From an uncultured Candidatus Saccharibacteria bacterium (lineage in GTDB: Bacteria > Patescibacteriota > JAQUNI01), in NCBI GenBank assembly GCA_964555185.1, contig CAZKRD010000004.1, forward strand, positions 755 through 64,754: a stretch of DNA of 64,000 nucleotides. The letters are read 5' to 3'. The translations under genes and the position numbers were made by a program. Shown one piece after another: positions 1 to 20,168 of this stretch. Each line of letters opens with the position of its first letter. Position 1 is the stretch's first letter. The notes under the pieces were generated by a model, which saw only the letters and a program-made list of their open reading frames with translations, made no database searches and was not told the DNA's origin.

Positions 1-1
1 T

Positions 2-3000
2 GCCTATACCCTCTATCTCTATGACACTAACCAATCTCACCTCCTCCATGTCCTATGGAACGAAGACGACTCTGCTCACCGCATCCTAAACCTCGCTGTT
101 GGAGGCGGCAATAGAGCATTCACCCTCAATGAAGACCTCACCATCGGAGACGGCCAGAATGTTACGATCACCGCCTTAGGCCAAGCCAACACCCTAACCT
201 TAAATGAGTCCTTTACGATTGGAGACGGCAATGACGGCACCCTCACTTACTCCGCCTCCTCCAAGACCCTAACCGTAGAAGATGACTCCTATATCAACCA
301 AGACCTAACCACAGACGCCAACCCGACATTCGCAGGACTAAACGCTGATGCTATTAACATTGGCATCACTTCTTCTTTTGAAATAGACACTGATTCAAAT
401 ATCCTTCTTCTAGATTCAAACTCAGGTACAGTCAAGATAGATGATGACCTTTACATCACCGGACAAGTTAAAGGAGACTCAAGCTTCGCATTCGGCGGAG
501 CAGACACGGAAAGCTACAACGTAATTGGAGACACCACTACAAACATGGGTCATTCGCTATCAAGCGATGACGACCTATATATAGAAGGCGATTTAGAGGT
601 AGACGGTTCTGCTTGGTTTGATGCTTCAGTGACAATCGCAGACAAACTGACAGTAGATGGAACTACTCTTCATGTTAATTCTGATACTAACCGAGTGGGG
701 ATTGGGACGGTGAGTCCTGCAAAAAACTTAGATATTTATGATGCTACTGGAGCAGAACTTTTATTAGTGCGAGACGATTCTTCTACTGAAATTAACAATT
801 TACTTGGTCAAATATTATTTGATGCAAATGATGGTTTAAGTTCTGTAGATGCTTCAGTAATGATTAGAGCTTATGCTTCTGAAGAACATATTACAATTAA
901 TAAAGGAGGATATTTAACATTTGAAACAAAACGAGATAATGTAAACGATAATCAACCAGCTAATGAGTGGATGAGATTAACATCAGCAGGATTTCTCGGC
1001 ATAAACACCACACTTCCTGACCGCAAACTAGATGTTTTAGATGCCTCTAACCCCCAACTCCGTCTAACTTACACAGACGGGAGTGTGTATTCCGAATTTC
1101 AAACAGACTCTGGTGGAGACTTAACCATAGATATGTCGGGAGGTAATTTGCTCTTAGCTGATGCAGATACTTTTGCTGTGGGTGGAACATTAGGACAAGC
1201 CTATAATGTAATTGGTGATACTACTACGGGAATGGGTCATTCTTTATCTTCAGATGATGACTTATACCTTGAAGGAGATTTGGAAGTAGACGGCACAGCA
1301 TGGTTTGACGGAGGAATCACGACCCCAAGCCTTGCCATCTCCGGATTAACTGCTTCAAGACTGGTTGCTACAGACGCAGCTAAAAACATTGTCTCTTCTG
1401 ACCTTTACGCCTGGGTAACCGGTACAGCCAATCGAGTCACAGTCGCGGATGATGCAGACGGAACAATCACTCTCTCTGCTCCTCAAGATATCCATACAGC
1501 AGCCAACCCAACATTCGCAGGCTTAAACGCAGACGCGATCAACATCGGAATCACTTCTTCTTTTGAAATAGACACTGATTCAAATATCCTCCTCTTAGAC
1601 TCAAGTTCAGGCACAGTTAAAGTAGACGACAACCTCTATATCACCGGACAAGTTAAAGGAGACTCAAGCTTCGCATTCGGAGGAGCAGACACGGAAAGCT
1701 ACAACATAATCGGAGACACCACCACAAACATGGGCCACTCCCTAGCCTCTGATGATGATTTATATATAGAAGGAGACCTGGAAGTGGACGGTTCTGCTTG
1801 GTTTGATGCTTCGGTCACAATCGCAGACAAACTGACAGTAGATGGAACTACTCTTCATGTGAATTCTGATACTAATCGGGTGGGGATTGGGACGACGGGA
1901 CCAACAGCGAAGTTGGAAGTTTCTGGTGGGAATTTGAAAATGACAAGTGGAAATATAGCTTTGAATGGTAATTGGTTAAGTAAAGATGGTGATAATGAAG
2001 GACTCTACATTCAAAGTAATGGTTATATAAATAATTTCGGCGAGGGTGCAACTCAGAATTTTGTCATAATAGGGACTGCATTATTCCGTGGTGCAACTTT
2101 TAGTATTGAAAATGCAAGTGCTAAGAATATTCTTGTGACATCTGGAAATAATATAAATCTGGTGACTGCCAGCGGCGGCAACGTCGGCATAAACACCGTA
2201 GGCCCCGACCGTAAACTAGACATCTTAGACGCCACTAACCCCCAACTACGCCTAACCCACACAGACGGGAGTGTTTATGTGGATATGCAAGCAACTTCGG
2301 CAGGACATTTAAGTATTTCAGGAAGTGGGGGGAATGTGGGAATTGGGACAACAACACCTACTTCAAAACTTCATATATTTTCACCTGATGATGCAGATTC
2401 GTGGAATAGTGCCCAACCATTAGTGGAAATAACTAATCTTGATGTAAATGCAACCGATGCAGCTGCTTTACTTGTTCGTGGTGGAGCAAATAATGTAGTT
2501 GGTCTAACTTTTCAAGTGCAAGATTATAGTGGGAATACAGATTTTGTAATAACAGGAAACGGCAACGTCGGCATTGGAACTGCGAGTCCCAATCTTAAAG
2601 TTGAATGGGCAGACGCAACAAGAAGTGGATTTTTGGATTTTGGCTTAGGAGGAGTAACAATAGGAGGAGCAGCAGGAAATAATTTAGCATTATGGACTAA
2701 TGGCAATCAACAAGTTACTATAGACACCAACGGCAACGTCGGCATCGGCACCACTGCTCCAGATAAAATTCTTGAAATCAACAAATCCACAGGAGGAGAG
2801 ATCCGCCTTACCTACAATGACTCTGATGGTAGTGCTGCTAACTATGCTGATTTCAGTGTAGGTAGTGGTGGAGATTTAACTATAGATGCCTCTGGTGGAA
2901 ACTTGCTTTTAGCAGATAGTGATACTTTTGCTGTGGGTGGAGCGTTAGGACAAGCCTACAATGTAATTGGAGACACGACCACGAACATGGGCCACTCCCT

Positions 3001-6000
3001 AGCATCAGATGATGATTTATATATAGAAGGAGATCTGGAAGTAGACGGCACAGCATGGTTTGACGGAGGAATCACCACCCCAAGCCTTGCCATCTCCGGA
3101 TTAACTGCTTCAAGACTGGTTGCTACAGACGCAGCTAAAAACATTGTCTCTTCTGACCTTTACGCCTGGGTAACCGGTACAGCCAATCGAGTCACAGTCG
3201 CGGATGATGCAGACGGAACAATCACTCTCTCTGCTCCTCAAGATATCCATACAGCAGCCAACCCAACATTCGCAGGCTTAAACGCAGACGCCATCAACAT
3301 CGGAATCACTTCTTCTTTTGAAATAGACACAGACTCAAACATCCTCCTCTTAGACTCAAGCTCTGGCACAGTCAAAATAGATGATGACCTCTACATCACC
3401 GGACAAGTTAAAGGAGACAGCTCCTTCGCCTTTGGCGGAGCAGACACCCAAAACTACAACGTAATTGGAGACACCACTACGAATATGGGTCACTCCCTAG
3501 CATCAGATGATGACCTCTATATTGAAGGAGATTTGGAAGTAGACGGTTCTGCCTGGTTTGATTCTGCAATTACTGTAGCAGGAGACATCACTCTTACGGG
3601 ACATCTCTTACCTTCTGCTAATGATCAATATGATCTAGGTTCAGATAGTCTGCGCTGGAGAGACCTCTACCTGGGCCCTGGTTCTGTCCATATGGGTGTT
3701 TCTGGCAATGAAGCCATAATCGGCTATGACACTACCTCAAACTACATCACCTTTGACCCAGATGGAGACACCACAGCAGAGATGGTGATTGATGATTCTG
3801 GGAATGTGGGGATTGGGACGACTGGGCCAGACAGAAAGCTAGACATCATAGACTCATCTAACCCTCAATTAAGGTTATCTTATGTCGATTCCAATGCTTA
3901 CGCAGATTTTCAAGTAGAAAGTAACGGATATCTTGGCATACTACCTTCTGGTAAGAATGTCGGCATCGGCACCACTAGTCCCAGCGCCCTTCTCCATGTA
4001 GCTGAAAGTAGAACTTCAGGTACGATCACAAAACTGTCTTATCCTTCTGCCACCACTCTAGCTGGCAGTGTGATTGGCACTGATATTGATCTTTTAACCA
4101 ATCTCACCCCCGGATCCTATGATATTACAGGATTGCAAATCACAATGCCGTCAACAGGCACGGGAGATCATAGCTTTGCCAAGTTTATTGAAGGTTCCAC
4201 TACGCTTTATGACTTTAATACTGTAACTGCCCAATTCGATGTACCAACTTCATTTAATGCCGCTGGCGATGTTTCTTTATCCTATGATTTAATTTTGACC
4301 AATGCCAATGCTAGCTATATTAAATCGAACGGCTCTTTATATATTGAGGCTGGTGATCCAAACCAAAATTATGGTTTGACTCTATCAGCCAATGGATCGG
4401 GCAGAGTTATTGTTAGTGACAATTTTTATGTTACTGGCCCTGTTCAGGGAGATTCTGCCTTCGCCTTTGGCGGAGCAGACACCCAAACCTACAACGTAAT
4501 CGGAGACACCACGACAAACATGGGCCACTCCCTTGCTTCCGATGATGATCTCTACATTGAAGGAGACCTGGAAGTAGACGGTTCTGCTTGGTTTGATGCT
4601 TCTGTTACAATTGCAGACACACTGACTGTAGCTGGAGACATCCTTGCTACTTCTGGTGTCCATATTGGTGTAGATACTACTCCTAATCTTATTGATGACG
4701 CCACTAACGGATCAGATTCTACCACTCTCTACATTGGCAATAAGATTATTAGCACAGAGGCCTCTGATGCCAGAAAAAAGGATGTGATTGGCACAACCGG
4801 GAGAGGTCTCCAAGACATCCTGGAGATGAAGGTAGTAGACTTTACCTGGAAGCCAGACTTTGACATTGATTCCAGCACGATTAACACTGGGATACTGGCC
4901 CAAGAGATGTATCAGATCCTGCCCTCTGTAGTTAGAGTACCCCCGGATGAAGAGACCGGCCTATGGTCTATTCAGTACAACAACATGGTTCCTGTCCTCG
5001 TCAGAGCGATCCAGGAACAACAGGGACAGCTTTCTGTACTTGATGATGAAATGTTATTGGTTAACGATCAGATTATGGAGCTTTCTGGGATTATTTCTGA
5101 TAGTATGCCGGCTTTTTCCGCATTAGATTTAGAGATTGATGGTTTAGGCGAGGAACTGGCGGATTACGGAGCGCAGATTGATGATTTAGAGGTGAGAGTG
5201 GGCGACTTAGAGGGAGGTTCTGATACTGTTCCAGAAACAGACCTTGGAGATAATGGCGACACAACCTCCGAATCTGAAGAGGTGAACCCAGAGTCTTTGC
5301 AAGAGACCTTGCAGACTCTGGTTGACAGCCTGGACGCTCTTTCTGGTTTGACCAGTCAGCTTGGCATTTTAACTGATTCTATCCTAACTGTGATGGAATC
5401 CAATCAAGTGAACACAGCAAGGATTGAAGAACTAGAAGCAGAAGTAGGAGAATTAAAGCAGATTGCGAGGATTGTGGACGAGAAAGTAGTGATTGGCACA
5501 CCCGATCAGTATTTGGTTTTGGACGCGGCAAGCGGACTTGAGATTAACAGTGAGAATTTTGTTCTGGATCCAGACGGCAATGTGACGATCGCTGGTGAGC
5601 TTAACCTGCTTTCCGGCAGGATTAATTCAGAGTCCGGGGTTTTAGAGCTAAATCCGGGTGAGAATGAAGAAGGGGAAAGCAAGGTTGTGGTCCGGGGAGA
5701 CTTGGAAGTGGAAGGAGACTTGTTGGTTTTAGGAACTTCAACAGAACCGGCAGTAGAGGAAGTGGAAGGAGAGGAGGAAGAGAGGGATTCGATCACAGGC
5801 GTGGCTGTAATCTCCGCGGGCGACACCGAGATTGTGGTCGACAATGATAATATAAGCGCAGACTCTTTAATCTATATTACACCCGTGTCGCCTACTCAAG
5901 GCCAGGTCCTGTTTGTTGCGGAAAAGCGCGAGGAAGAGGTTTATGATCAAGATCGGAAGGAATGGTTGGCCCAGGGCTTTACCGTAGCGGTTGAAGAAGA

Positions 6001-6049
6001 GGTGGGGGAGGATATTGAGTTTAATTGGTGGATTGTGGATTCAAACTAA
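2..6049 (+). CDS. Giant repetitive surface/tail-fibre-like protein, 5'-truncated by the window edge (the frame is open from nt 2; the ORF-track Met at 545 is internal). It has repeated Gly/Thr-rich motifs (NVGIGTTxP, GDTTTNMGHSLASDDDLYIEGDLEVDG) and an internal Peptidase_S74-like intramolecular chaperone domain, followed by an ~380-aa acidic coiled-coil tail
   Basis: Translating frame 2 from nt 2 gives no stop codon, and nt 300-545 encode the same repeat seen downstream. The segment SDARKKDVIGTTGRGLQDILEMKVVDFTWKP...GILAQEMYQILPSVVRVPPDEETGLWSIQYNNMVPVLVRAIQEQ matches the endosialidase/tail-spike chaperone (PF13884-like) consensus, including a Ser..Lys dyad. Confidence 0.6.
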   Translation, partial: AYTLYLYDTNQSHLLHVLWNEDDSAHRILNLAVGGGNRAFTLNEDLTIGDGQNVTITALGQANTLTLNESFTIGDGNDGTLTYSASSKTLTVEDDSYINQDLTTDANPTFAGLNADAINIGITSSFEIDTDSNILLLDSNSGTVKIDDDLYITGQVKGDSSFAFGGADTESYNVIGDTTTNMGHSLSSDDDLYIEGDLEVDGSAWFDASVTIADKLTVDGTTLHVNSDTNRVGIGTVSPAKNLDIYDATGAELLLVRDDSSTEINNLLGQILFDANDGLSSVDASVMIRAYASEEHITINKGGYLTFETKRDNVNDNQPANEWMRLTSAGFLGINTTLPDRKLDVLDASNPQLRLTYTDGSVYSEFQTDSGGDLTIDMSGGNLLLADADTFAVGGTLGQAYNVIGDTTTGMGHSLSSDDDLYLEGDLEVDGTAWFDGGITTPSLAISGLTASRLVATDAAKNIVSSDLYAWVTGTANRVTVADDADGTITLSAPQDIHTAANPTFAGLNADAINIGITSSFEIDTDSNILLLDSSSGTVKVDDNLYITGQVKGDSSFAFGGADTESYNIIGDTTTNMGHSLASDDDLYIEGDLEVDGSAWFDASVTIADKLTVDGTTLHVNSDTNRVGIGTTGPTAKLEVSGGNLKMTSGNIALNGNWLSKDGDNEGLYIQSNGYINNFGEGATQNFVIIGTALFRGATFSIENASAKNILVTSGNNINLVTASGGNVGINTVGPDRKLDILDATNPQLRLTHTDGSVYVDMQATSAGHLSISGSGGNVGIGTTTPTSKLHIFSPDDADSWNSAQPLVEITNLDVNATDAAALLVRGGANNVVGLTFQVQDYSGNTDFVITGNGNVGIGTASPNLKVEWADATRSGFLDFGLGGVTIGGAAGNNLALWTNGNQQVTIDTNGNVGIGTTAPDKILEINKSTGGEIRLTYNDSDGSAANYADFSVGSGGDLTIDASGGNLLLADSDTFAVGGALGQAYNVIGDTTTNMGHSLASDDDLYIEGDLEVDGTAWFDGGITTPSLAISGLTASRLVATDAAKNIVSSDLYAWVTGTANRVTVADDADGTITLSAPQDIHTAANPTFAGLNADAINIGITSSFEIDTDSNILLLDSSSGTVKIDDDLYITGQVKGDSSFAFGGADTQNYNVIGDTTTNMGHSLASDDDLYIEGDLEVDGSAWFDSAITVAGDITLTGHLLPSANDQYDLGSDSLRWRDLYLGPGSVHMGVSGNEAIIGYDTTSNYITFDPDGDTTAEMVIDDSGNVGIGTTGPDRKLDIIDSSNPQLRLSYVDSNAYADFQVESNGYLGILPSGKNVGIGTTSPSALLHVAESRTSGTITKLSYPSATTLAGSVIGTDIDLLTNLTPGSYDITGLQITMPSTGTGDHSFAKFIEGSTTLYDFNTVTAQFDVPTSFNAAGDVSLSYDLILTNANASYIKSNGSLYIEAGDPNQNYGLTLSANGSGRVIVSDNFYVTGPVQGDSAFAFGGADTQTYNVIGDTTTNMGHSLASDDDLYIEGDLEVDGSAWFDASVTIADTLTVAGDILATSGVHIGVDTTPNLIDDATNGSDSTTLYIGNKIISTEASDARKKDVIGTTGRGLQDILEMKVVDFTWKPDFDIDSSTINTGILAQEMYQILPSVVRVPPDEETGLWSIQYNNMVPVLVRAIQEQQGQLSVLDDEMLLVNDQIMELSGIISDSMPAFSALDLEIDGLGEELADYGAQIDDLEVRVGDLEGGSDTVPETDLGDNGDTTSESEEVNPESLQETLQTLVDSLDALSGLTSQLGILTDSILTVMESNQVNTARIEELEAEVGELKQIARIVDEKVVIGTPDQYLVLDAASGLEINSENFVLDPDGNVTIAGELNLLSGRINSESGVLELNPGENEEGESKVVVRGDLEVEGDLLVLGTSTEPAVEEVEGEEEERDSITGVAVISAGDTEIVVDNDNISADSLIYITPVSPTQGQVLFVAEKREEEVYDQDRKEWLAQGFTVAVEEEVGEDIEFNWWIVDSN
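1141..1900 (+). repeat. Intragenic near-identical repeat block, copy A, within the giant gene. Related copies lie at ~300-710, 2893-3560 and 4440-4630
   Basis: About 285 nt at 1290-1575 match 3040-3325 with only ~2 mismatches. The motif GDTTTNMGHSL(A/S)SDDDLYIEGDLEVDG recurs 6 times, at nt ~545, 1230, 1728, 2982, 3483 and 4517. Confidence 0.8.
2893..3560 (+). repeat. Intragenic near-identical repeat block, copy B
   Basis: Direct nucleotide comparison with 1141-1900. Confidence 0.8.
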
Positions 6050-6063
6050 GATTTACAATTATT

Positions 6064-6262
6064 CTAATTATACTAATTGTTCTAATTATTCTAAGAAATG
6101 ACCAAGCCCCAATGACCAAATTAATAGAATTATTCTAATTAACCTAATTATTCTAAACAAATCCCAATAACCAATGACCCAAAATTAATTTTATTTTTTG
6201 GGGTTTGGGACTTAGTCATTATTTAGAACAATTAGTATAATTAGAACAATTAGTATAATTTT
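6064..6262. mobile_element. MITE-like non-autonomous element with 18-bp terminal inverted repeats (attatactaattgttcta ... tagaacaattagtataat, the right TIR tandemly doubled). Internal ccaatgacc modules and a central imperfect palindrome
   Basis: The left TIR at ~6067-6084 is the exact reverse complement of tagaacaattagtataat at 6225-6242 and 6243-6260. Confidence 0.55.
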
Positions 6263-6270
6263 CTTCCCTT

Positions 6271-9200
6271 ATGTTGCTAAAAATAAAAAAACCTATTTGT
6301 TGGTTTAAAAAACTAAGCAAACGAGTTCTGTTTTTAATTATCTTAGGCATCTTCTTTGTCGGTGCCGGAGTTTTTACGATCGTAGCGGTTAATAATCGCG
6401 GCAACGAACCGGTTGCTTGGTGGCGGTTAGACGAGGGCTATGGCACAAGCGCTTATGATGCCAGCGCAAACTCCAACACAGGCACGATAATCAATGCTGT
6501 TTGGAAAAACGAACCCTATTGCAAAACAGGAAAATGCCTCTACTTTGACGGAACCAATGATTATTTATCAATAATTAATGATTCAACACTCAATCCAACA
6601 GAAGGAGTAACAATAGAAACATGGGCAAGACCCAACAACTTTGACTCCTCTGCCTCCTTAATTAAAAAAGACCAGCAATATTCATTAGACATTGCTCAAG
6701 GAGTGCCTAACTTCAGAGCTTACGCCAACTCAAGATGGTATTCTGCCATAGGCGGTGAAAGGGCTTGGCTTTTCAGAGAGCCAGCTGACAACCAGCTTAC
6801 AGGCGATGGCGGAGCCACCTTCACAGAAGCTTTTGGTTACCGAGCCCTAACCCCTGCAAACCTCACAGCAGAAAAAGGAGTACTAATTACTGACGCTGAC
6901 GGCAGTGGCTCTGGAAGTGGCGACAACTTACAATACAGCCGTGGAAGCCAGAGCACCCCCGATGGAACTAATGTTGTCTACGAAAACTTTGATCCAAACC
7001 AAGGCACTTTGGAGTTTTGGGTCAGACCTAATTGGGATGGGGATGATGGGTTAAGGCATTATATAACTCAAGGGTGGCATGACACTAATAATCGTTTTCA
7101 AATACGTAAAGATATTAGCACTAATGATTTATATTTTTCTTATTACGCCAACAGTTCTGGGGCTGACGTAGGGGCTTATGATATATCATCTTGGAACGCA
7201 GGAGTTTGGCACCATATTATAGGAGTGTGGGATAAAAATAATGTGACCAATGGCACCGATAATATAACTTTATATGTTGATGGTTCAAGGATAGCTGGTA
7301 ATGTCACTGACCCTGGACAGGCAGAAGGAGTAGATACTGATTTTCATATTGGCTCTGGCAGAGACGGTGCTGATCAATTCAACGGCACAATTGCTGGCAG
7401 AATATTAAATCGGCCACTGACAAGCACTGAAGTCACGGCTCTGTATAATTCTGGGGCTGGCTCAACCGACACCTTTACCGTCACCCCAGACACGGTTTGG
7501 ATGGGGACTTACTCTGACGACTCCACAACAGCCACATATTGGCATACTGGCAAAAGCGTGTCCGCAATCGCAGACGGAGCAAACGAAGACACCCTGACAA
7601 CCGCCAGCGGAGCAGACAACTCCTTCAGCGATAACGACCGCGTCGTAGTTTACGACGGCACGGGCTACAAAGTAGAGGGTTGTGTGGACGGCGCGCCAAG
7701 CGACACCAGCGTTGCAGTTGACAACTGCGCCGACGCTGACCCAGGAACCACTGAAAATATAGGTGTTCATGCTGAACTAGATTCTTCTACTCCTGAATAT
7801 TTCTATAATGCCGCTGCCTCTATGAAGCCAGGCGATGGCGTTGATTTCTATGTTGCCGCGTGGGTAAATCCAGCAGTGGTTGGTACATATATTATTTTTC
7901 AATCAGGTCTGCCTTATGCTTGGGTAGATCGTGCTGGTTATTATTTTTACATGTCTGGTGATAAAATTGGAATTCGTCTTGATGATGAAACTGATACGGG
8001 TGGTGGTGCGTTTACTTCAGAAGCTTGTATTGTAGCTGATAAGTGGCAGCACATAGCAGTGAGAGTAGATAGGGATGATTTAGCTTATTTTTTCTGTAAT
8101 GGTTATGCCGCAGGAACTGCAAATGTATCAGGGTATGATGGTGACTTATCTGATGCTGCTATTACTAGGATTGGAACAGGTTATAATGGAGCAGGTAATC
8201 CGCAATATAGTTTTGATGGTAAGATTCGTGACGTTAGAATACAGGTAGGTGGAACACAGCCCTCAGATGCGCAGATTTTGTATCAAGCAACGCATCCTTT
8301 GGATTATACCGCAAGTTCATGGACACTGAATGGTTCTCGAGGATATTACACTATGACAGACTCTGATATGTCTTCTGGTTTGACAGCTTCAGGAGATGCC
8401 ATTGCTTTGTTAACTGCGGGTGGTGGTAATCCTAGGGAACAAGAAGCGTTTGTTAGCAAAAACCTGATTCAAGACGGGTCAATGGAAAACGGGGGAATAG
8501 GGGAGTGGCAAGTCGGCGATGTAGCAACAACTCTGGCCAAAGATACCACAACAATAAAATACGACAACCAATCATTAAAAATCACTAACGCTGACGCCAG
8601 TCAGGCGTTTGCTCGCCAAAGCATTACCACAGTCGCAGGCGAGGATTATTATTTTAATGGTTGGTTTTATGGTCCCTCTACAGTCAACGGCGCAAGTCAA
8701 TTAGTTGATGTTGATGCTACTGCGGCATTAGGTGTAACAGCCACACAAGCAGGCGCTATTGCCTCAACATGGAAAGAGGTGGATTTTTGCTTTGAAGCTG
8801 GCGACACCTCTACTGACATTGATTTGGGCAGTGGTTCTGTTATTGATACTGAAATTGGCTATTGGGATTCTGTAAAGCTCCTCCCCAACCTTATTGATGA
8901 CGGTGGCATGGAGGGGGCTTATACTAGCTGTGGCGCATCACTTACATTGTCATCAGTCAATACTACGTTTACATCAACTAGAGTAACAGATGGCTCTGCC
9001 TGGACTTTGTCCAGCGTCATTTCAGGATATATAGCCATAGCCAGTGGTGGTTCAAAAGGAATGATTACTGTTGTTGACGACGGTTCTGATTATGTAGATG
9101 TAGAAAATTGGGATGCTGGAACACCAAGCAATGGCGAAACCGTACGTATTTATTATGCGCTACCTGACGGATGGTCAACTTCAATTTGTAATTCTGCGAG

Positions 9201-12200
9201 CAAACCTCGTCGACTTGAAGGTCGTACTGGGAGTTATGCTCAACAACTTAGAATGGGCGCCGCTAGCTGTACCCATTATTTGTATCAAGACATAGCTGGG
9301 TATGAAGATTTTAAAGGTAAATATCTGACCTTAAGCGCTTGGGTTAATGGTAACTGGAGTATTGGCGCTGGCTCTTGCACACCTCCTTATATTATGATTG
9401 ATGATGGTGTGTCAACTGTCTCGTCAGAAACAAAGAGCGTTGATGATGGTTGGGAGAAGTTAATAATCACTAAGCTGATAAGTGATAGCGCAACCAAAAT
9501 CAGAGTAAGATTATATGTGCCTTATTATATTTATTCAACATGGGATGATATTTCTCTTGTTGTCCTTGATGATATTTCTCCAAGTACGGCTACGCCGTCA
9601 ACCGAGGCAAATTCTTTTGGCACAGGTAAGTGGAGCGACACGAACGGCGCATTTCTGGTTGACGGCGGAGATACTTTAACATACACACAATCTGGCAATC
9701 TTGACAACGAGGCAGGCACAGTGGCTTTTTGGGTGAAACCAAATGGCTACGACGAATCAACTCCAGTGGACAAATACTGGATTGACACCCGCGACTCAAC
9801 CCCAGACCAAGGGTTTTATGTGTATATGAACTCAACCGAAGACGATGTGGTATTTGCCGGCAATGACAGCGTTAATGTTTGGGCGGCCACCTCAACAGCA
9901 ATTGATTGGAGCGTTAATGCCTGGCACCACATAGCAGTAACCTACGACTGCTCACAAGCAGGTGGCTCTGACGAAGTCTACTTATATATTGATGGCTCCG
10001 TAGCGGCTTCAGATACTTCAGAAACCTGCGCTTCTTGGACTCTGCCAACTAATATGTATGTAAATAGTGATTATGCTGGAGCAAACCAAGGAGATGCTTA
10101 TCTTGATGATATTAGAACATATGACTCAGTGCTTTCATCAACAGAAATTACTGATATTTATAACAACACAAAATTGCGGACTGTTTCTGCCAACGAATGG
10201 GCGCATTTAACAGGGGTTTATTCAAAAGACGACGCTAATCTAAAAATTTATAAAAATGGGGTGTTGCAGAATACAGTGGCTGTGGGCGCCAGCTACGACT
10301 TAGCAACCAGCTCAAATAATTTAATGCTCGGCGAAGCATTTTTCGGATTTTTAGACGAGCCCCGCATATACGACTATGCTAGAACCGCTGACCAAGTTAA
10401 AGCTGACTATGTTGCTGCTTCGTCTTTGCGTGGAGCTTCTGGCAGAGCTGTAACAGTTGGGGAAGGGATTGACTCAAGCGAAGGGCTTGTGGCTCACTGG
10501 GCAATGGACGAGTCCGCGTGGGACGGCACTACAGATGAGGTTGTTGACTCCTCTGGCAATGCCAACCACGGCGTGCGTGTCGCCGATGCCAACACCACAA
10601 GCACCGCAAAATACGGCAGAGCAGGGACTTTTGATGGCACAGGGGATTATGTGGATATTGGAATCGGCCCCACTGCGGTAAACGTGGTAGCTTTTTGGGC
10701 AAATCCAGGCACCACATCAGATTATTTTATAGACTTGAACGGCTCTGCCTATATTAGCGTATCATCCGGGACTTTATCGGCAACAGGATTTACTGATCCA
10801 ACAATTTATGTAAATGGCGCAGTGTCTAATACTATCGTAGCTAGCGCGTGGCAGCACATTGTTGTTACAACAAATACTAGTATCAATGCCAGTGATTTGG
10901 ATATAGGCAGATTAGAAGGAACAGATGATTATCAAGGGGAAATTGATGATGTTAAGATGTATAGCGTTATTCGTTCAGCCAGTCAAATCCGCAAGGATTA
11001 TGAAACCGGCCCGCCACCTGACCTGCACTTAAAAATGGATGAAAACACCGGCGATACGGTTTATGATACAGCAGGAGAGAATGATGGGATTTTGGGTACT
11101 GGCTCTGGTGTTGATGTAAGGGATCCTTCTTGGGCTCCTGGTAAATATGGCAGTGGCTTAAAGCTTGATGGTTATGATGATCGTATAATAGTAAGCCATG
11201 GAAGCGCTTTTGAATTTGGAAGGGGGAATTTTACGATTGCCTTTTGGGCAAAAATAATCGACAATATTCGTATGGGAAAAGACTATTATTATGGTGAAAG
11301 CCCAGCGGGCGAGAATAGGTGGGCGATTCACTCAGCTGGCTATGGCCAAGGGATTATGTGGCAGTCTGCTAACTGCGGGGATGGCTCCAATGATGTCATG
11401 GTGGGTGCTGGCAGTAGTGGCGATTATGCTGACGGCGAGTGGCGTCATTTTGCTTTTGTTAAAAAGGATCAGATAGGATATTGGTATATCAATAGCGTTG
11501 ATAAAACCAGTTGGCGGTCTGATTCTTTTGCTGATTTTGGTTGTTCTTTGAGTAATGACAGAACTTTAGTAATGGGAAGATATACCAGATATCCTGTTGA
11601 TGGAACTGATTATATGGATGGTTCTTTTGATGATTTTAGAGTTTATAAATATGCCCGGACGCAGAAGCAGATTATGGAGGATATGAACGCAGGCCACCCA
11701 GCAGTTGGCTCGCCTGTTGGCTCGTATGTCGGCTATTGGAAGTTTGATGAGGGCTATGGCACTACTGCTTATGATAATTCTGTTAATGATAATGATTTAA
11801 CCCTTTCTAACGAATCCTGGGAAACAGATTGCAAGTTTGATAGTTGCTGGGACGGAGATGGCACAGAATATGTTTATCGCAATGATGATCCTGACTTTGA
11901 TTTTGGGGCTACTGATGACTTCGCAATCACGGGCTGGTTTAAACACGATACGATCGCTGATAACCCAGATTATCTAGTGGTAAAGAATAATGGCAAGGGC
12001 TACAAAATCTATATGGATTCTGACGGCGACCTTGCCTTTGGCATTGATGATGATGCCAGCTTTGACCCTGATGATGTAGTCGGCGATGATCAATCAAAAA
12101 ACTATGATGATAATACCTGGCACCATTTTGCCGCAATCGCAAACGATACTACTTCAATCAAACTCTATGTTGACGGTATCAAGATAGATGAAGACACCAC

Positions 12201-13827
12201 AATCGAAGCCTCTGGCACCCTAGCAAATGCCGACCCTCTCTACATCGGAGTAGATGATGACGGCTCTTCCAATCCTTGGGATGGTGAGATCGATGAACTT
12301 AAGATCTACCGTTTTACCTTGACGCCAGAAGAGATCAAACAAGAATACAATCAAAGCAAAAGCCTTGTTTTGGGTTCAAAGTCAACAGAATCTGACGGCA
12401 CCACTCCATCCAATTCAGCTTCAAGGGAGTACTGCGTCCCTGGAGACACAACATTTTGTGATCCGCCAGTGGCGCACTGGCGGATGGATACAAAAGGAGG
12501 GGATACGGCTTATGATTTAGCCGGATCGAATGACGGCACCTTGGGCAGCGGCGCTGGCGCTGACTCTGCTGATCCTGTGTGGCGACATGAAGACCGCTGC
12601 CACGAAGCGGGCTGTCTTGATTTTGATGGGGTGGATGATTATGTGGATGCGGGGAACGATGATTCTTTGACTAATATCAGTGAACTTACAATTTCAGCTT
12701 GGATAAATAGCCCTCTTCTATTTGAGGAATCTGCTGGCTCTGATTTAGGGTCTATTGTAGACAACGATGATAATGAAAATTATCAAATGAGAGTTAATGA
12801 GGATGGTCAAGTAATTCTTAATCTAGGTGGCGCATGGAATGCGTGTAGAACTGCAGGTGGAGCTATAACAGCAAATACTTGGCATCATCTTGTAGGCACA
12901 TACGATGGCTCAAATTGTGAAATTTTTGTTGATGGAATTAGTAAAGATACTGGAACAGGTGGAGCATTAATTGATTCTGCAGAACCTGTTTATATTGGCA
13001 AAAGAAAAGATACGGCTACTGAACGTTTTAATGGTATCATAGACGACGTCCGTATATACGACTACGCCCGAACACCAGCCCAAATCGCCTGGGAGTATAA
13101 TAGGGGAGCGCCTGTTGGCTGGTGGAAAATGGATGAGGGTCAGGATTCAGAAACAACCTGCAACGCCACTGGCTCAACTGTGTATGACTACTCTGGCAAC
13201 GGCAATAACGGAACCCTTTCACTCCAACCTGCTGGCAACACAGCCACTACAACTGCATGGTCCGAAGGCAAATACTCCTGCGCCCTCGACTTTGACGGCA
13301 CTGATGATTATGTGGAGATCGGAGATAGTGACTCTTTAGATAACACAAACCAATTGACAATTTCTACTTGGGTTTATCCAGAATCTATTTCCAATAGAGG
13401 TATTTTGGCAAAAAGAGTTGCTTTTCAGGATAATCACTCATATGACCTTTATTTTGCTTCAAGTAAATTATATGTTGATATTGATAGTAATAATGATAGA
13501 TTTAGTAGTAATAAAATTTTCAGCACCAACCAATGGTATCATATTGTGGTTGTGTATGATGGAACATTAGCATCTGCTCAGCGGGCTAAAGTTTATGTAG
13601 ATGGTGTTTTGGACAAAACGGCAACTGAAACAAGCACATCTATTCCAAACTACGCCTCGAATTTTTATATTGGGGTTTTAAAAACAGACCCTGGGACAAC
13701 TTGGGAATTCGACGGTCTCATAGACGACGTCCGCATATACAACTACGCCCTAACCCCGTTGCAAATTCGCACACTTTACAACGAGAATTCAGCGGTGAGA
13801 TTTGGACCTACCGAGGGATTGCCGTAA
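6271..13827 (+). CDS. Giant membrane-anchored multi-lectin protein. N-terminal TM helix, at least 9 LamG-like (Laminin_G_3/concanavalin-A-like jelly-roll) domains and two CBM_4_9-like modules
   Basis: The unit W(W/K)(L/F)DEGxG..aYD.SgN.n.GT.....G..G.al.FDGtdDYv...WhHiavtYD...lYvDG....iDdvRIY(D/N)YA(R/L)T..qI recurs about 9 times. NLIQDGSMENGGIGEWQ and NLIDDGGMEG look like carbohydrate-binding-module starts. The hydrophobic stretch at aa 18-40 is a signal anchor. Confidence 0.75.
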   Translation: MLLKIKKPICWFKKLSKRVLFLIILGIFFVGAGVFTIVAVNNRGNEPVAWWRLDEGYGTSAYDASANSNTGTIINAVWKNEPYCKTGKCLYFDGTNDYLSIINDSTLNPTEGVTIETWARPNNFDSSASLIKKDQQYSLDIAQGVPNFRAYANSRWYSAIGGERAWLFREPADNQLTGDGGATFTEAFGYRALTPANLTAEKGVLITDADGSGSGSGDNLQYSRGSQSTPDGTNVVYENFDPNQGTLEFWVRPNWDGDDGLRHYITQGWHDTNNRFQIRKDISTNDLYFSYYANSSGADVGAYDISSWNAGVWHHIIGVWDKNNVTNGTDNITLYVDGSRIAGNVTDPGQAEGVDTDFHIGSGRDGADQFNGTIAGRILNRPLTSTEVTALYNSGAGSTDTFTVTPDTVWMGTYSDDSTTATYWHTGKSVSAIADGANEDTLTTASGADNSFSDNDRVVVYDGTGYKVEGCVDGAPSDTSVAVDNCADADPGTTENIGVHAELDSSTPEYFYNAAASMKPGDGVDFYVAAWVNPAVVGTYIIFQSGLPYAWVDRAGYYFYMSGDKIGIRLDDETDTGGGAFTSEACIVADKWQHIAVRVDRDDLAYFFCNGYAAGTANVSGYDGDLSDAAITRIGTGYNGAGNPQYSFDGKIRDVRIQVGGTQPSDAQILYQATHPLDYTASSWTLNGSRGYYTMTDSDMSSGLTASGDAIALLTAGGGNPREQEAFVSKNLIQDGSMENGGIGEWQVGDVATTLAKDTTTIKYDNQSLKITNADASQAFARQSITTVAGEDYYFNGWFYGPSTVNGASQLVDVDATAALGVTATQAGAIASTWKEVDFCFEAGDTSTDIDLGSGSVIDTEIGYWDSVKLLPNLIDDGGMEGAYTSCGASLTLSSVNTTFTSTRVTDGSAWTLSSVISGYIAIASGGSKGMITVVDDGSDYVDVENWDAGTPSNGETVRIYYALPDGWSTSICNSASKPRRLEGRTGSYAQQLRMGAASCTHYLYQDIAGYEDFKGKYLTLSAWVNGNWSIGAGSCTPPYIMIDDGVSTVSSETKSVDDGWEKLIITKLISDSATKIRVRLYVPYYIYSTWDDISLVVLDDISPSTATPSTEANSFGTGKWSDTNGAFLVDGGDTLTYTQSGNLDNEAGTVAFWVKPNGYDESTPVDKYWIDTRDSTPDQGFYVYMNSTEDDVVFAGNDSVNVWAATSTAIDWSVNAWHHIAVTYDCSQAGGSDEVYLYIDGSVAASDTSETCASWTLPTNMYVNSDYAGANQGDAYLDDIRTYDSVLSSTEITDIYNNTKLRTVSANEWAHLTGVYSKDDANLKIYKNGVLQNTVAVGASYDLATSSNNLMLGEAFFGFLDEPRIYDYARTADQVKADYVAASSLRGASGRAVTVGEGIDSSEGLVAHWAMDESAWDGTTDEVVDSSGNANHGVRVADANTTSTAKYGRAGTFDGTGDYVDIGIGPTAVNVVAFWANPGTTSDYFIDLNGSAYISVSSGTLSATGFTDPTIYVNGAVSNTIVASAWQHIVVTTNTSINASDLDIGRLEGTDDYQGEIDDVKMYSVIRSASQIRKDYETGPPPDLHLKMDENTGDTVYDTAGENDGILGTGSGVDVRDPSWAPGKYGSGLKLDGYDDRIIVSHGSAFEFGRGNFTIAFWAKIIDNIRMGKDYYYGESPAGENRWAIHSAGYGQGIMWQSANCGDGSNDVMVGAGSSGDYADGEWRHFAFVKKDQIGYWYINSVDKTSWRSDSFADFGCSLSNDRTLVMGRYTRYPVDGTDYMDGSFDDFRVYKYARTQKQIMEDMNAGHPAVGSPVGSYVGYWKFDEGYGTTAYDNSVNDNDLTLSNESWETDCKFDSCWDGDGTEYVYRNDDPDFDFGATDDFAITGWFKHDTIADNPDYLVVKNNGKGYKIYMDSDGDLAFGIDDDASFDPDDVVGDDQSKNYDDNTWHHFAAIANDTTSIKLYVDGIKIDEDTTIEASGTLANADPLYIGVDDDGSSNPWDGEIDELKIYRFTLTPEEIKQEYNQSKSLVLGSKSTESDGTTPSNSASREYCVPGDTTFCDPPVAHWRMDTKGGDTAYDLAGSNDGTLGSGAGADSADPVWRHEDRCHEAGCLDFDGVDDYVDAGNDDSLTNISELTISAWINSPLLFEESAGSDLGSIVDNDDNENYQMRVNEDGQVILNLGGAWNACRTAGGAITANTWHHLVGTYDGSNCEIFVDGISKDTGTGGALIDSAEPVYIGKRKDTATERFNGIIDDVRIYDYARTPAQIAWEYNRGAPVGWWKMDEGQDSETTCNATGSTVYDYSGNGNNGTLSLQPAGNTATTTAWSEGKYSCALDFDGTDDYVEIGDSDSLDNTNQLTISTWVYPESISNRGILAKRVAFQDNHSYDLYFASSKLYVDIDSNNDRFSSNKIFSTNQWYHIVVVYDGTLASAQRAKVYVDGVLDKTATETSTSIPNYASNFYIGVLKTDPGTTWEFDGLIDDVRIYNYALTPLQIRTLYNENSAVRFGPTEGLP

Positions 13828-18210: not shown

Positions 18211-18332
18211 TCAATTTTCAATAACCAATGAATAAATTTTCAAACAAAACCATTTTCGCAGGTTTGAAAATTAAATCATTGAACCTTCGGATTTGATTGA
18301 AAATTGAGATTTGTAAATTGAAAATTACCTTT
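18211..18332. repeat. AT-rich palindromic element, same family, with core ttttcaaacaaaaccattttcgcaggtttgaaaatt
   Basis: The core is the reverse complement of the core at 57200-57240, so the same element is present in both orientations. Confidence 0.75.
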
Positions 18333-20168
18333 ATGATCAACCTTGCCTACCCTAAAGTAGGGCCAAAGAGAAAGTCTTCGGGCAGGAAGCGCGGCATAAT
18401 TTTAGCGGTTTTAGTTTTAGTTTTTCTTTTTGGAGGAGCTTCTGGTTGGTATTTTTTTATTTTTCAAAAACAAGCGGATAATTTTACAGGCCAAGGGGTG
18501 GAAGTAAAAATCGAGGCGCCGGAGGAGGTGATTTCCGGCTCTTCTTATCAATACACGATTGAATACGTTAATAACGAAAAGGTGGCGCTTGAGAATGCCT
18601 CGCTTGTCCTTTATTTCCCCTCCGGTTTTAATTTTACTGATTCTTTACCAGAGCCGGATTCAAAGGGAGAGAGCGAAGAGGCCAATGTCGCTTTTAAGGT
18701 TCAGGGCGATTCCTCTTCCCGTACCTGGGATTTGGGAAGACTGGATCAGGGGGAGCGGGGAATAATTAAGTTTAAAGGGATTATTTTGGGGGATTTGGGT
18801 TCAACCAACGCTTTGAGTGCGCATTTGAGCTACCAGCCGGAGAATTTCAGCTCCAGTTTTTCAGCAGAAGGCGGGACTAGCGTGTTGGTTAAAAAATCGC
18901 TGGTTGATTTTGATTTAGAACTGCCCGAGAAGACAGGAAAGGGGAGAGAGGTTGAGATCGCGGTTTTATACCGTAATATCACCTCGGAAGATTTAGAGAA
19001 TGTGCGGATTATCCTGAATTATCCAGAAGGATTTTCTTTTATCTCATCAGAACCAAGAGCAGATCGCGAGGATCGGGTTTGGGATTTTCGAGTTTTGCGG
19101 CGCGGCGAGCGGGGGCGGATTGATCTTAAGGGGAAGATAGATTCGGGAGAGTCTTTAGCTGCCTTTAGCGCAGAGCTTGGGGTTGTGGATCAGTATAAGC
19201 AGTTTTTCAGCCAAGTCAAGCAGGAGAAGAAGATGATTGTTTTAAACCCCTTATTGGAAATAACCGCTACGATTAACGGCGAGGAGGAGACGAAGATCAA
19301 TCCCGGCGATGAGCTTAGATTTATCTTTACTTATGCTAATCTTGGGGATGTCAGGATTGAGGATGGAACAATCAACTTCTCTATGGAAACAGGGCTTTTG
19401 GATACCAGTTCAATCTCGATTTTAGAAGGTCATTATGATGCTAACGAATTCACTTGGGATGCCGGCTCTTCCTTGGGCTTGGCGAGGGTGGAACCGGGGG
19501 AAAAGGGCAGGGTAGAATTTGGAGCTCAACTTTTACCTGTTTTCCCCTATTCCTCTTTGGATAAGCGGAACTTGGAACTCTCGGGCAAAGCGCGTTTTGA
19601 AAGCAATAGTGTTGACGGACTCCGAGGGTTTGATTTTGAGACCGAGAGCAATGAATTGAGAGCGAAAATCAACACCGAGCTTGATTTGGTTTCGGAAGCG
19701 CGATATTTTGACCTTGATTATGAACAGGCAGGTTCAGGCCCTCTGCCGCCTAAAGTGGGGCAAAAAACCATTTATCGTATTTATTGGACGCTTTCTAACA
19801 CGACTAATGACGCGGAGAATGTTCAAATTAAAACTATCCTGCCGGAAGGGGTGGCTTTCGGGGAGGATTTTTTCTCTTCTTTTGGCAATGAATTAGAGTA
19901 TGATCCGGAGACAAGAGCCGTGATTTGGGATTTGGGCAGGGTGCAGGCCTATGCCGGCAGTGTTTTGGCAGGCGCGCGGGCTTGGTTTGAGGTTGGTGTG
20001 ATCCCGACCGCGGACCAGGTAGGCCAAACTCCGCCATTAACGGAAGAGATTTTTGTTTCGGGACAGGATTTGTTTACCGAAGCCAGAATTGAGAATGAAC
20101 ATCCGAGTTTAAATACAGAATTGACTAATGATTTGGGAGCATTGGGGAAAGGGGAGGTGGTGAAGTAA
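18333..20168 (+). CDS. DUF11 (conserved repeat domain) membrane-anchored protein. The ORF-track start at 18297 lies inside the palindromic repeat, so the ATG at 18333 is preferred
   Basis: N-terminal TM helix followed by about 4 repeats of the pattern ..Y.i...N.g...a.nv.i....P.G..f....p......W.lG.l..Ge.g.i...g. Confidence 0.6.
   Translation: MINLAYPKVGPKRKSSGRKRGIILAVLVLVFLFGGASGWYFFIFQKQADNFTGQGVEVKIEAPEEVISGSSYQYTIEYVNNEKVALENASLVLYFPSGFNFTDSLPEPDSKGESEEANVAFKVQGDSSSRTWDLGRLDQGERGIIKFKGIILGDLGSTNALSAHLSYQPENFSSSFSAEGGTSVLVKKSLVDFDLELPEKTGKGREVEIAVLYRNITSEDLENVRIILNYPEGFSFISSEPRADREDRVWDFRVLRRGERGRIDLKGKIDSGESLAAFSAELGVVDQYKQFFSQVKQEKKMIVLNPLLEITATINGEEETKINPGDELRFIFTYANLGDVRIEDGTINFSMETGLLDTSSISILEGHYDANEFTWDAGSSLGLARVEPGEKGRVEFGAQLLPVFPYSSLDKRNLELSGKARFESNSVDGLRGFDFETESNELRAKINTELDLVSEARYFDLDYEQAGSGPLPPKVGQKTIYRIYWTLSNTTNDAENVQIKTILPEGVAFGEDFFSSFGNELEYDPETRAVIWDLGRVQAYAGSVLAGARAWFEVGVIPTADQVGQTPPLTEEIFVSGQDLFTEARIENEHPSLNTELTNDLGALGKGEVVK

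Follow-up and report, generated by a model that had tools for sequence, protein, structure and literature searches.

Proteins with concanavalin A (ConA)-like or laminin G (LamG) domains are regarded as attachment factors of cells of the Candidate Phyla Radiation (CPR) and of the DPANN, and are likewise carried by CPR and DPANN phages (PMC11310336, PMC12911398). The RTX adhesins project carbohydrate-binding modules (CBMs) and other ligand-binding modules from split domains (PMC12077191, PMC10865825), and TafC, the tip subunit of haloarchaeal Tat-fimbriae, exposes an outward LamG domain on a surface appendage for which an adhesive role was proposed (PMC11821415). Here, we report on a stretch of 64,000 nucleotides of the CPR (Patescibacteria) contig CAZKRD010000004.1 (assembly GCA_964555185.1), hereafter referred to as the window, and on a giant LamG gene at its positions 6271..13827 on the plus strand. 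Both the ConA/LamG surface proteins of CPR cells and the LamG proteins of their phages are known; new, and well supported, is the architecture, in which a full phage-type cassette buds from a split LamG domain within a conserved array anchored in the membrane. The initial annotation of this gene had described an array of LamG-type domains with CBM-like modules; the array was borne out, but it is not a simple tandem, the first LamG domain being split by a nested cassette of six modules.

Results

The first LamG domain is split by a nested insert

The gene is initiated by ATG and encodes 2,518 amino acids followed by a stop codon. Comparison of the protein with a profile hidden Markov model (HMM) of its own LamG units revealed two segments which each covered one half of the profile, aa 93-165 matching positions 1-69 only and aa 1294-1376 matching positions 71-158 only. 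Together with the alignment of homologues, these half-profile matches placed the N-terminal half of the first domain (LamG1), with the motif 'WKNEPYCKTGKCLYFDG', at aa 45-165 (6403..6765, +) and the C-terminal half, 'SANEWAHLTGVY ... FLDEPRIYDYARTADQVKADY', at aa 1306-1376 (10186..10398, +), the latter also on the basis of AlphaFold2 (AF2) modelling. Between them lies an insert of 1,140 aa (aa 166-1305; 6766..10185, +). When aa 44-165 were joined to aa ~1294-1425, the resulting sequence aligned end to end with the uninterrupted LamG1 and linker of 10 homologues, the core motifs being intact in both halves, and the junction mapped to the variable loop preceding the conserved W-H-H strand of LamG1. 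The two half-profile matches thus indicate nine LamG domains, one of them split, which accounts for the ten stretches found by Pfam.

The joined halves, the sole LamG unit modelled, were folded with AF2 using the 10 homologous segments as the alignment, which gave a predicted local distance difference test (pLDDT) score of 70.8 and a predicted template modelling (pTM) score of 0.74. The model displayed the two-sheet jelly-roll fold, and in Foldseek searches the whole 204-residue joined model aligned over 213-246 columns, with a query TM-score (TMq) of 0.62-0.72, to complete ConA-like jelly rolls, i.e. domain 4 of AbnA, BoNT HcN/NTNH (clostridial neurotoxins) and the lectin domains of trans-sialidases. 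Based on this model, the two halves of LamG1 are predicted to reassemble into one jelly roll.

A syntenic orthologue carries an uninterrupted LamG1

In a scan of species-representative genomes, relatives of the array were found only in Patescibacteria (Gribaldo-, Doudna-, Sacchari- and Moraniibacteria). In one of these, a Doudnabacteria metagenome-assembled genome (MAG; locus L006), six genes are present in the same order as in the window, namely the C-terminus of a fibre-like gene (45% identity), the LamG array, the genes for IleRS (57%), RecO (53%) and a DUF11 protein (56%), and a class II aminoacyl-tRNA synthetase (aaRS) gene (55%). The LamG array of L006 comprises 1,631 aa, its LamG1 is uninterrupted and the cassette is absent. 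The anchor and the stretch '...AVNNRG..PV.WW..DEG.G...WKNE..CK.GKCL.FDG.NDY' are the same as in the query, the '...AVNNRG' N-terminus being common to both proteins, and the two are 38% identical over 1,306 aligned columns.

Because its repeats misled a plain MAFFT pairwise alignment to the L006 orthologue, the query was compared by scored global alignments in which the insert was either kept or removed. The score against the first 330 aa of the orthologue rose from 246 to 436 once aa 166-1305 were removed. At the junction, 'YSAIGG|...|SANEWAHLTGV' of the query is aligned with 'ISAVGG-SCLTDVLTDSKSLVG-SWHHVVGV' of L006, and therefore the insert occupies a loop of ~14 residues. The first LamG domain was uninterrupted in all array homologues compared (10 proteins and the loci L006, L008 and L009). 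With the members of this orthologous group (L006 and proteins of the P0003-P0016 type) the query shares the anchor, a 'C..G.C'-type LamG1, colinear linkers and the C-terminal LamG units; in our reading, the conserved backbone consists of six LamG jelly rolls, with orthologues across many CPR lineages.

The nested arrangement is maintained

An identical 2,518-aa protein (P0001) was recovered from three assemblies generated by different pipelines, i.e. ENA scaffold_1 (706,972 bp) and the Logan assemblies of SRR8482191 and SRR8482196 (source sample SAMN10404973), and the 7.5-kb reading frame is open through both junctions. When aa 44-400 of the query were searched against 1.84 billion cluster representatives, three proteins spanned the 5' junction in one aligned stretch, with identities across it of 59% (P0167), 54% (P0168) and 63% (P0169); three separate metagenome samples were the source of P0167 and P0169. 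Base composition and codon usage of the insert match the rest of the gene (r=0.89 for relative synonymous codon usage, RSCU), and no junction repeats were found; the insertion is therefore not recent. A nested split-domain architecture is thus well supported and, in our judgement, highly probable.

The gene for P0167 (within L019:481-2515 and L020:260-2275, from two independent Joint Genome Institute (JGI) metagenomes) is located directly downstream of an IS200-type Y1 transposase gene and encodes the anchor, the N-terminal half of LamG1 and the first cassette LamG, followed by a stop codon and AT-rich non-coding DNA. P0167 stops after 'VWMGNYSD', and P0168 and P0212 end at the same 'VWMG.(Y/F)SD' motif.

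A second candidate for a split LamG1, in the Patescibacteria contig L005, where matches to the N- and C-terminal halves lie 4.3 kb apart, was rejected, as the halves belong to different open reading frames (ORFs) with a reverse-transcriptase-like gene between them on the other strand. This reverse-transcriptase-like ORF (4290..5459, minus strand) has a YMDD motif, and a nearby ORF (2109..3566) encodes a transmembrane segment and a C-terminus rich in Tyr, Asn, Gly, Phe and Arg. Both ORFs (2109-5459) are located between LamG genes and may together represent a diversity-generating retroelement.

Modules of the cassette

The insert is composed, in this order, of a LamG domain, a beta module, a LamG domain, two CBM-like modules and a LamG domain, corresponding to ~120 kDa. 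Its LamG domains were delimited by self-jackhmmer. The first of them, LamG2 (aa 231-388; 6961..7434, +; E=1e-36), contains the motifs 'QGTLEFWVRPNWDG' and 'FNGTIAGRILNRPLTS', which are largely conserved in the cassette family with the invariant residues Q79, G80, E83-W85, G207, I209-R212 and N215. The beta-rich module that follows (aa ~400-500; 7468..7770, +; 'TVTPDTVWMGTYSD ... RVVVYDGTGYK') was recognized by its good conservation in the same family (invariant V244, W245, D297, G298 and G300); it had no Pfam match, and no PDB sequence was significantly similar to aa 388-510. LamG3 (aa 513-664; 7807..8262, +; E=1e-38) precedes the CBM-like modules and LamG4 (aa 1131-1293; 9661..10149, +; E=1e-44) is the last cassette domain. 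The LamG4 region (aa 1127-1283) was matched by the PHROG baseplate wedge family phrog_13163; no PHROG match was obtained when the insert was scanned by itself.

CBM-like module 1 (aa 726-872; 8446..8886, +; 'KNLIQDGSMENGGIGEW...') matched CBM_4_9 (PF02018) near the cutoff (E=2e-5, profile positions 1-125 of 136), and precomputed PF02018 matches were present in the cassette homologues P0056, P0060 and P0061. Module 2 (aa 873-1100; 8887..9570, +; 'NLIDDGGMEG...') was delimited by AF2 and contains a low-confidence internal insertion at aa ~884-961. The AF2 model of aa 720-1105 (pLDDT 63, pTM 0.68) displayed two beta sandwiches, that of module 2 with pLDDT values of 53-92 outside the internal insertion. 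Foldseek aligned this model with the tandem CBM22-1/CBM22-2 of Xyn10C (4xup; E=1e-11), covering both modules, with single CBM16 and CBM22 modules (target TM-score (TMt) 0.58-0.64; for the CBM16 2zew, TMt 0.64 and root-mean-square deviation 3.7), and also with the CBM-like domains of Vip3 and Cry protoxins. Among viral models (BFVD) the tandem matched, again over both modules and with E-values from 1e-14 to 1e-9, proteins annotated as 'Carbohydrate-binding, CenC-like', 'Tip attachment protein J', 'minor tail protein' and 'tail fiber', the best matches being the 'CenC-like' proteins (E=1e-14). The designation 'CBM-like' thus follows the predicted fold, at moderate model confidence, and the sequence only marginally. 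The initial annotation had listed two CBM_4_9-like jelly rolls interspersed among the LamG domains; both are retained as folds, marginal as they are in sequence, but they are adjacent to each other within the insert.

The internal insertion of module 2 (window 8920-9153; aa ~884-961) is a segment of ~75 residues whose composition is like that of the 'VVVYDGTGYK' beta module; it has counterparts in P0058 and P0064 and may constitute a further small nested domain.

The cassette belongs to a family found mostly in phage genomes

Searches with aa 166-1305 retrieved stand-alone proteins of ~1,000-1,190 aa (P0056-P0066) and P0018 (1,448 aa). The stand-alone proteins could be aligned colinearly over the entire insert (33-38% identity) and share its module order and invariant motifs; the match of P0058 (1,112 aa; 35% identity, E=2e-135) extended over 98% of the insert, and P0018 was 37% identical across 650 aa. 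An alignment of 10 cassette sequences contained 71 invariant columns, and a signal peptide was absent from several members of the family.

All six stand-alone cassette homologues whose genomic contexts were read reside in phage-like contigs, and three of the six adjoin tail or tube genes. The contexts contained a DNA polymerase A with UDG, primase, RNA ligase, SbcCD-like proteins, dUTPase and RNR (L010); Phage_tail_S, Phage_tube_2 and a NUMOD3 endonuclease (L012); HNH endonucleases amid many small ORFs (L014); DnaE, RecA, RNA ligase and a Pel9A-like beta-helix (L015); Phage_depo_C, BACON_2 and an S77 prohead protease (L017); and Phage_tail_S with a tape-measure protein (L018). IMG/VR yielded one full-length copy, in an uncultivated virus genome (L022), and one partial copy. 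The family was found in none of the cultured phages of INPHARED, and in a tblastn search of 50,697 phage records the sole match to the insert, in a Methanobacterium virus, had a coverage of 7%. The cassette thus belongs to a family found mostly in phage genomes, and the protein in the window may have acquired it from that source.

Two members point to a modular family. In P0057 an SGNH/GDSL hydrolase is inserted between the beta module and the second LamG domain, and in P0062 the cassette core is flanked by fibre-like 'GIGT.SP..L' repeats resembling the gene upstream of the LamG gene in the window; the latter arrangement indicates that natural recombination does occur between modules of the two types of gene that are neighbours here.

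Anchor and remaining domains of the array

The coordinates and length given for this ORF by the initial annotation were exact, and most of what it had stated about the protein as a whole was substantiated. Kyte-Doolittle analysis showed a single window above 1.6 in the protein, at aa ~19-41 (6325..6393, +), which is preceded by a Lys/Arg-rich stretch and is also supported by the N-terminus of the L006 orthologue; this is the one N-terminal signal anchor that had been predicted. The proposed annotation with PF13385 was recovered by Pfam as Laminin_G_3 at E=1.4e-160 and 528.9 bits, against a gathering cutoff of 27.6, and the weaker matches that overlap it, to Laminin_G_2, Pentaxin and the N-terminal lectin domain of sialidase, all fall into its superfamily. 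At least nine LamG domains had been expected, and nine were found by Pfam and self-jackhmmer, one of them in two halves. DNA repeats within the gene do not exceed 53 nt, at 70-83% identity, and being so short and diverged they identify the LamG units as ancient duplications, in agreement with the earlier view that these were not recent.

Beyond the C-terminal half of LamG1, self-jackhmmer delimited a compact variant, LamG5 (aa 1455-1573; 10633..10989, +), whose 'DLNGSAYISxSSGTLSATGF' unit recurs in P0002, P0003, P0004, P0007 and P0008, and the full units LamG6 (aa 1633-1801; 11167..11673, +), LamG7 (aa 1861-2022; 11851..12336, +), LamG8 (aa 2119-2272; 12625..13086, +), which is preceded by the conserved Cys linker 'SREYCVPGDTTFCDPP', and LamG9 (aa 2342-2499; 13294..13767, +), the strongest Pfam match (profile positions 1-150 of 151).

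As the initial annotation had held, no enzymatic family was found among the Pfam and NCBIfam matches of the full protein. Membership of the GH16-type glucanases was rejected, as neither scan contained a glycoside hydrolase family and the motif E-[ILVM]-D-[ILVMF]-x(0,1)-E, and even a loose ExDxxE, was absent from the protein. Pfam detected no SLH, S-layer or cell-wall-binding repeats, nor DUF2341 (PF10102), though many homologues carry the latter; no LPXTG or sortase signal was found in the protein. Its sole NCBIfam match was the TafC family (NF052521) at 169.1 bits against an equivalog cutoff of 410, and TafC identity was rejected since the likeness is below the cutoff and confined to the LamG part. 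The array also matched a PHROG 'virion structural protein', and its composition is rich in Asp, Gly, Ser and Thr.

Genomic neighbourhood

Directly upstream of the LamG gene, the window begins inside a fibre-like gene (1..6049, +) and covers the last 2,015 of the 4,380 aa of its product, which has matches to Peptidase_S74 and to tail-fibre PHROGs as well as many relatives in CPR MAGs and Caudoviricetes. The pairing of the two giant genes, which the initial annotation had pointed out, was corroborated by the fibre-then-array order kept in Doudnabacteria L006. Recoded stop codons were rejected as the cause of the difference between 4,380 and 1,834 aa for this gene, as the ORF extends past the edge of the window and TGA serves as a stop codon; the genetic code of the locus is the standard one.

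The fibre-like gene (L001:1-9779; in the window up to 6049) contains at least eight direct-repeat copies of at least 300 nt, with 82-97% nucleotide identity and a spacing of 651-1755 nt, which represent recent internal duplications, unlike the ancient repeats of the adjacent LamG gene. Peptidase_S74, an intramolecular chaperone, forms the very end of those tail fibres and endosialidases that have been characterised; here it lies at window positions 4220-4390 (aa 1407-1463 of the ORF 545..6049), ~370 aa before the C-terminus.

The two giant genes are separated by an imperfect palindrome of ~200 nt (6054..6263), probably a terminator and promoter region, built of 'TTCTAATTA'/'TAATTAGAA' motifs with TATAAT-like boxes. 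Relatives of this palindrome (70-92% identity, in both orientations) occur at several intergenic sites of L006 as well as in L019 and L021. The palindrome may be an intergenic repeat, a terminator or a promoter element that is found throughout the lineage.

Downstream of the LamG gene the window is ordinary chromosome, with five aaRS genes and genes for RecO, TGT, TopA, DprA, Mfd, ParB, SHMT, GlmS and LCP (LytR-CpsA-Psr), the last of these accompanied within the window by sugar-nucleotide genes; no phage genes were found downstream of the LamG gene within the window. A DUF11/CLIPPER-type surface protein is encoded three genes downstream (18297-20168), in a synteny that is kept in L006. In Jacksonbacteria (L016:11371-17238), the cassette-bearing protein P0019 is immediately followed by a 1,955-aa DUF11/CLIPPER protein, so that a LamG-DUF11 neighbourhood recurs in the window, L006 and Jacksonbacteria.

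Discussion

The closest relatives of the protein are the LamG arrays of CPR and DPANN (PF13385, often with DUF2341), with which it shares the domain family, the tandem design, the N-terminal anchor, the phylum and the presumed attachment role, as well as orthologous units and the linkers 'IMEDMNAGHP..GSPVGS' and 'REYCVPGD..C.PP'; unlike these, it is devoid of DUF2341 and its LamG1 is split by a 1,140-aa cassette of six modules. The phage LamG-CBM proteins (P0056-P0066, P0018 and that of L022) are colinear with the whole insert and share the tandem CBM fold, but they are separate proteins of ~1,000-1,450 aa in phage-like contigs, whereas the block in the window lacks termini of its own and is situated inside a membrane-anchored chromosomal gene with housekeeping genes downstream. 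The Jacksonbacteria protein P0019 (1,988 aa) is likewise a CPR protein that joins a complete 'C..G.C'-type LamG to the same cassette; here, however, the cassette is placed in tandem after the LamG domain and an FN3-like stretch instead of being nested, and DUF2341 is N-terminal, so that P0019 looks like an independent fusion. With the RTX adhesins (Marinomonas MpIBP, Vibrio FrhA, Aeromonas AhLap) the protein has in common that a ligand-binding module, often a CBM, buds from an interrupted beta-sandwich. These form an unrelated family with Ig-like extenders, RTX repeats, type I secretion and Gram-negative hosts, and their inserts are single domains of 17-30 kDa near the distal end, in contrast to six modules of ~120 kDa in the LamG domain beside the anchor. 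Membership of the RTX adhesins was rejected, as the only Pfam families of the protein are of LamG type and the anchor is N-terminal, and the likeness is best understood as an analogy of design only. TafC shares with it the outward LamG domain, the likeness being limited to the LamG units; the protein has neither a donor-strand N-terminal domain nor a Tat signal.

Given the role ascribed to ConA/LamG proteins in the literature, the split-domain architecture and the design analogue among RTX adhesins, we propose that the protein is a cell-surface adhesin bearing an acquired cassette for glycan recognition, an interpretation which we consider probable at a moderate degree of confidence. It would belong to a Doudnabacteria-related CPR bacterium, in which a single N-terminal helix would hold the multi-lectin protein in the membrane, the remainder being presumably extracellular. 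A complete copy of a protein of ~1,100 aa, otherwise found on its own in phage tail-gene neighbourhoods, would have entered LamG1, the LamG domain nearest to the membrane, at a surface loop that immediately precedes the 'W-H-H' strand, and upon reassembly of the LamG1 halves the cassette would bud from the split domain as in RTX adhesins. The most likely function would be adhesion, either to a substrate or to the glycans or further structures on the surface of a partner or host cell, with the phage-type cassette supplying an additional, probably carbohydrate-directed specificity, and the neighbouring fibre-like giant protein may share this role in surface attachment. The membrane-anchored, multi-lectin candidate adhesin of the initial annotation fits all findings and the CPR literature, its adhesin function being a likely rather than a demonstrated one, and the checks it had proposed gave concordant results, since the joined LamG1 and the CBM tandem yielded ConA-like and CBM-like folds and orthologous LamG arrays with a presumed attachment role in the literature occur in Patescibacteria. 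No support was found for its 'nanofibre'.

Several observations weigh against this interpretation. The joined LamG1 model is an artificial concatenation of the two halves, and its residues 82-122 (aa 125-165), i.e. the strands before the junction, reach pLDDT values of only 30-44; proper reassembly of LamG1 is therefore not secure. The three proteins that share the 5' junction are all short, and P0167 is a genuine truncated ORF of 399 aa beside an IS200-type transposase, while the 3' junction was seen in no other organism, a scan of JGI metagenomes giving only ordinary LamG arrays. As for the cassette, module 1 scored 25.4 bits with CBM_4_9, 0.5 bit short of the gathering score of 25.9, module 2 had no Pfam match at all, and binding of a ligand is a prediction from the fold class. 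The occurrence of the cassette in a cellular protein, Jacksonbacteria P0019, bears on the direction of transfer, which may have been from phage to cell or from cell to phage. Finally, the giant genes (window 1-13827) have a G+C content at third codon positions (GC3) of 0.35-0.39 compared with 0.50 for the housekeeping genes (14039-59553), and RSCU correlations to the housekeeping pool of 0.71-0.81 compared with 0.87-0.95 for the housekeeping genes themselves; this atypical codon usage leaves room for a foreign origin of the two-gene block.

Such an origin is the core of one alternative, according to which the fibre and LamG genes would not be native adhesin genes but a phage-derived block, be it a prophage remnant, a tail-like apparatus or a lysogenic-conversion 'AMG' (auxiliary metabolic gene) module. 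The codon usage would agree with it, as would the Peptidase_S74 and tail-fibre PHROG matches of the fibre, the 'virion structural protein' match of the array and the ConA/LamG genes reported from CPR phages (PMC11310336, PMC12911398). An Asp/Gly/Ser/Thr-rich composition can, however, also yield atypical codon usage, homologues of array and fibre are widespread in CPR MAGs, no phage genes follow downstream, and the gene pair occupies the same housekeeping neighbourhood in the Doudnabacteria MAG at flanking identities of only 53-57%, which indicates long vertical residence, so that we hold a phage-derived block to be improbable. Also unlikely is a device directed at phages, in which a cassette derived from a tail protein of phages infecting the CPR bacterium or its host would mask a phage receptor in the manner of superinfection exclusion, or would act as a decoy or 'phage sink' by binding and sequestering material of the phage or the host. 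Homologues of the cassette are indeed encoded near phage tail genes, the CBM tandem is similar to tip-attachment, minor tail and tail fibre proteins of phages, and a CPR bacterium was shown to adsorb a prophage of its host and thereby to act as a phage sink (PMC13578794). Against this, no PADLOC defence model matched either giant protein, no known exclusion system has this architecture, and the backbone array and its pairing with the fibre are conserved in genomes without the cassette, the core function being therefore independent of it.

The array might instead bind the wall polysaccharides of its own cell and serve as a structural part of the envelope, a scaffold or spacer similar to an S-layer. 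The N-terminal anchor and the many lectin-type domains, the LCP and sugar-nucleotide genes in the window and the conserved DUF11/CLIPPER surface protein nearby would be compatible with such a part, but the Pfam scan contained no SLH, S-layer or cell-wall-binding repeats, and rapid modular turnover, manifest in the gain of the cassette and in orthologues of 1,631 and 2,518 aa, is more typical of organism-facing proteins, which makes us doubt this explanation strongly. Degradation of polysaccharides, by a ConA-like glucanase with CBMs that would feed on complex glycans, is suggested by the GH16-type glucanases within the ConA-like superfamily, by the habitual company of CBM4/9/16/22-type modules with glycoside hydrolases and by one paper in which phage ConA-like genes were read as related to glycoside hydrolases (PMC12911398); as there is no glycoside hydrolase family in Pfam or NCBIfam and no catalytic motif, and all ConA-like units match the non-catalytic Laminin_G_3, we consider an enzyme extremely improbable. 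Hardly more credence is due to a chimeric assembly, or to a LamG1 destroyed by the insertion in a gene on its way to a pseudogene. The shortness of the 5'-junction relatives with P0167 ending at 399 aa beside a transposase, the poorly modelled strands before the junction and the 3' junction not seen elsewhere would be expected of such decay, but the same 2,518-aa ORF is present in three assemblies from different pipelines, its 7.5-kb frame is open over both junctions without junction repeats, the 5' junction is conserved at 54-63% protein identity and the core motifs of LamG1 are intact.

Because most lineages of CPR/Patescibacteria are uncultured, their recognition of partners is largely unknown, and LamG/ConA arrays are the usual suspects for partner attachment, without defined ligands. 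The surface adhesin proposed here offers a concrete handle, namely a discrete gained cassette with phage relatives on a conserved backbone, for which the L006 orthologue is a natural control without the cassette. It also represents an unusually large nested domain insertion, with six modules of ~120 kDa in a loop of a jelly roll of ~200 residues, and, if its adhesin role is as we presume, the split-domain display of ligand-binding modules that was described for RTX adhesins has arisen in an unrelated class of adhesins. More tentatively, and with a rather low likelihood, phages and ultra-small episymbionts might share a pool of receptor-recognition modules, the cassette built into the CPR array, and retained there by related lineages, recognizing the same host glycan as the phage in order to find or hold the bacterial host. 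If this were true, the partner specificity of CPR bacteria would become readable, and predictable, from the host range of the phages with the matching cassette.

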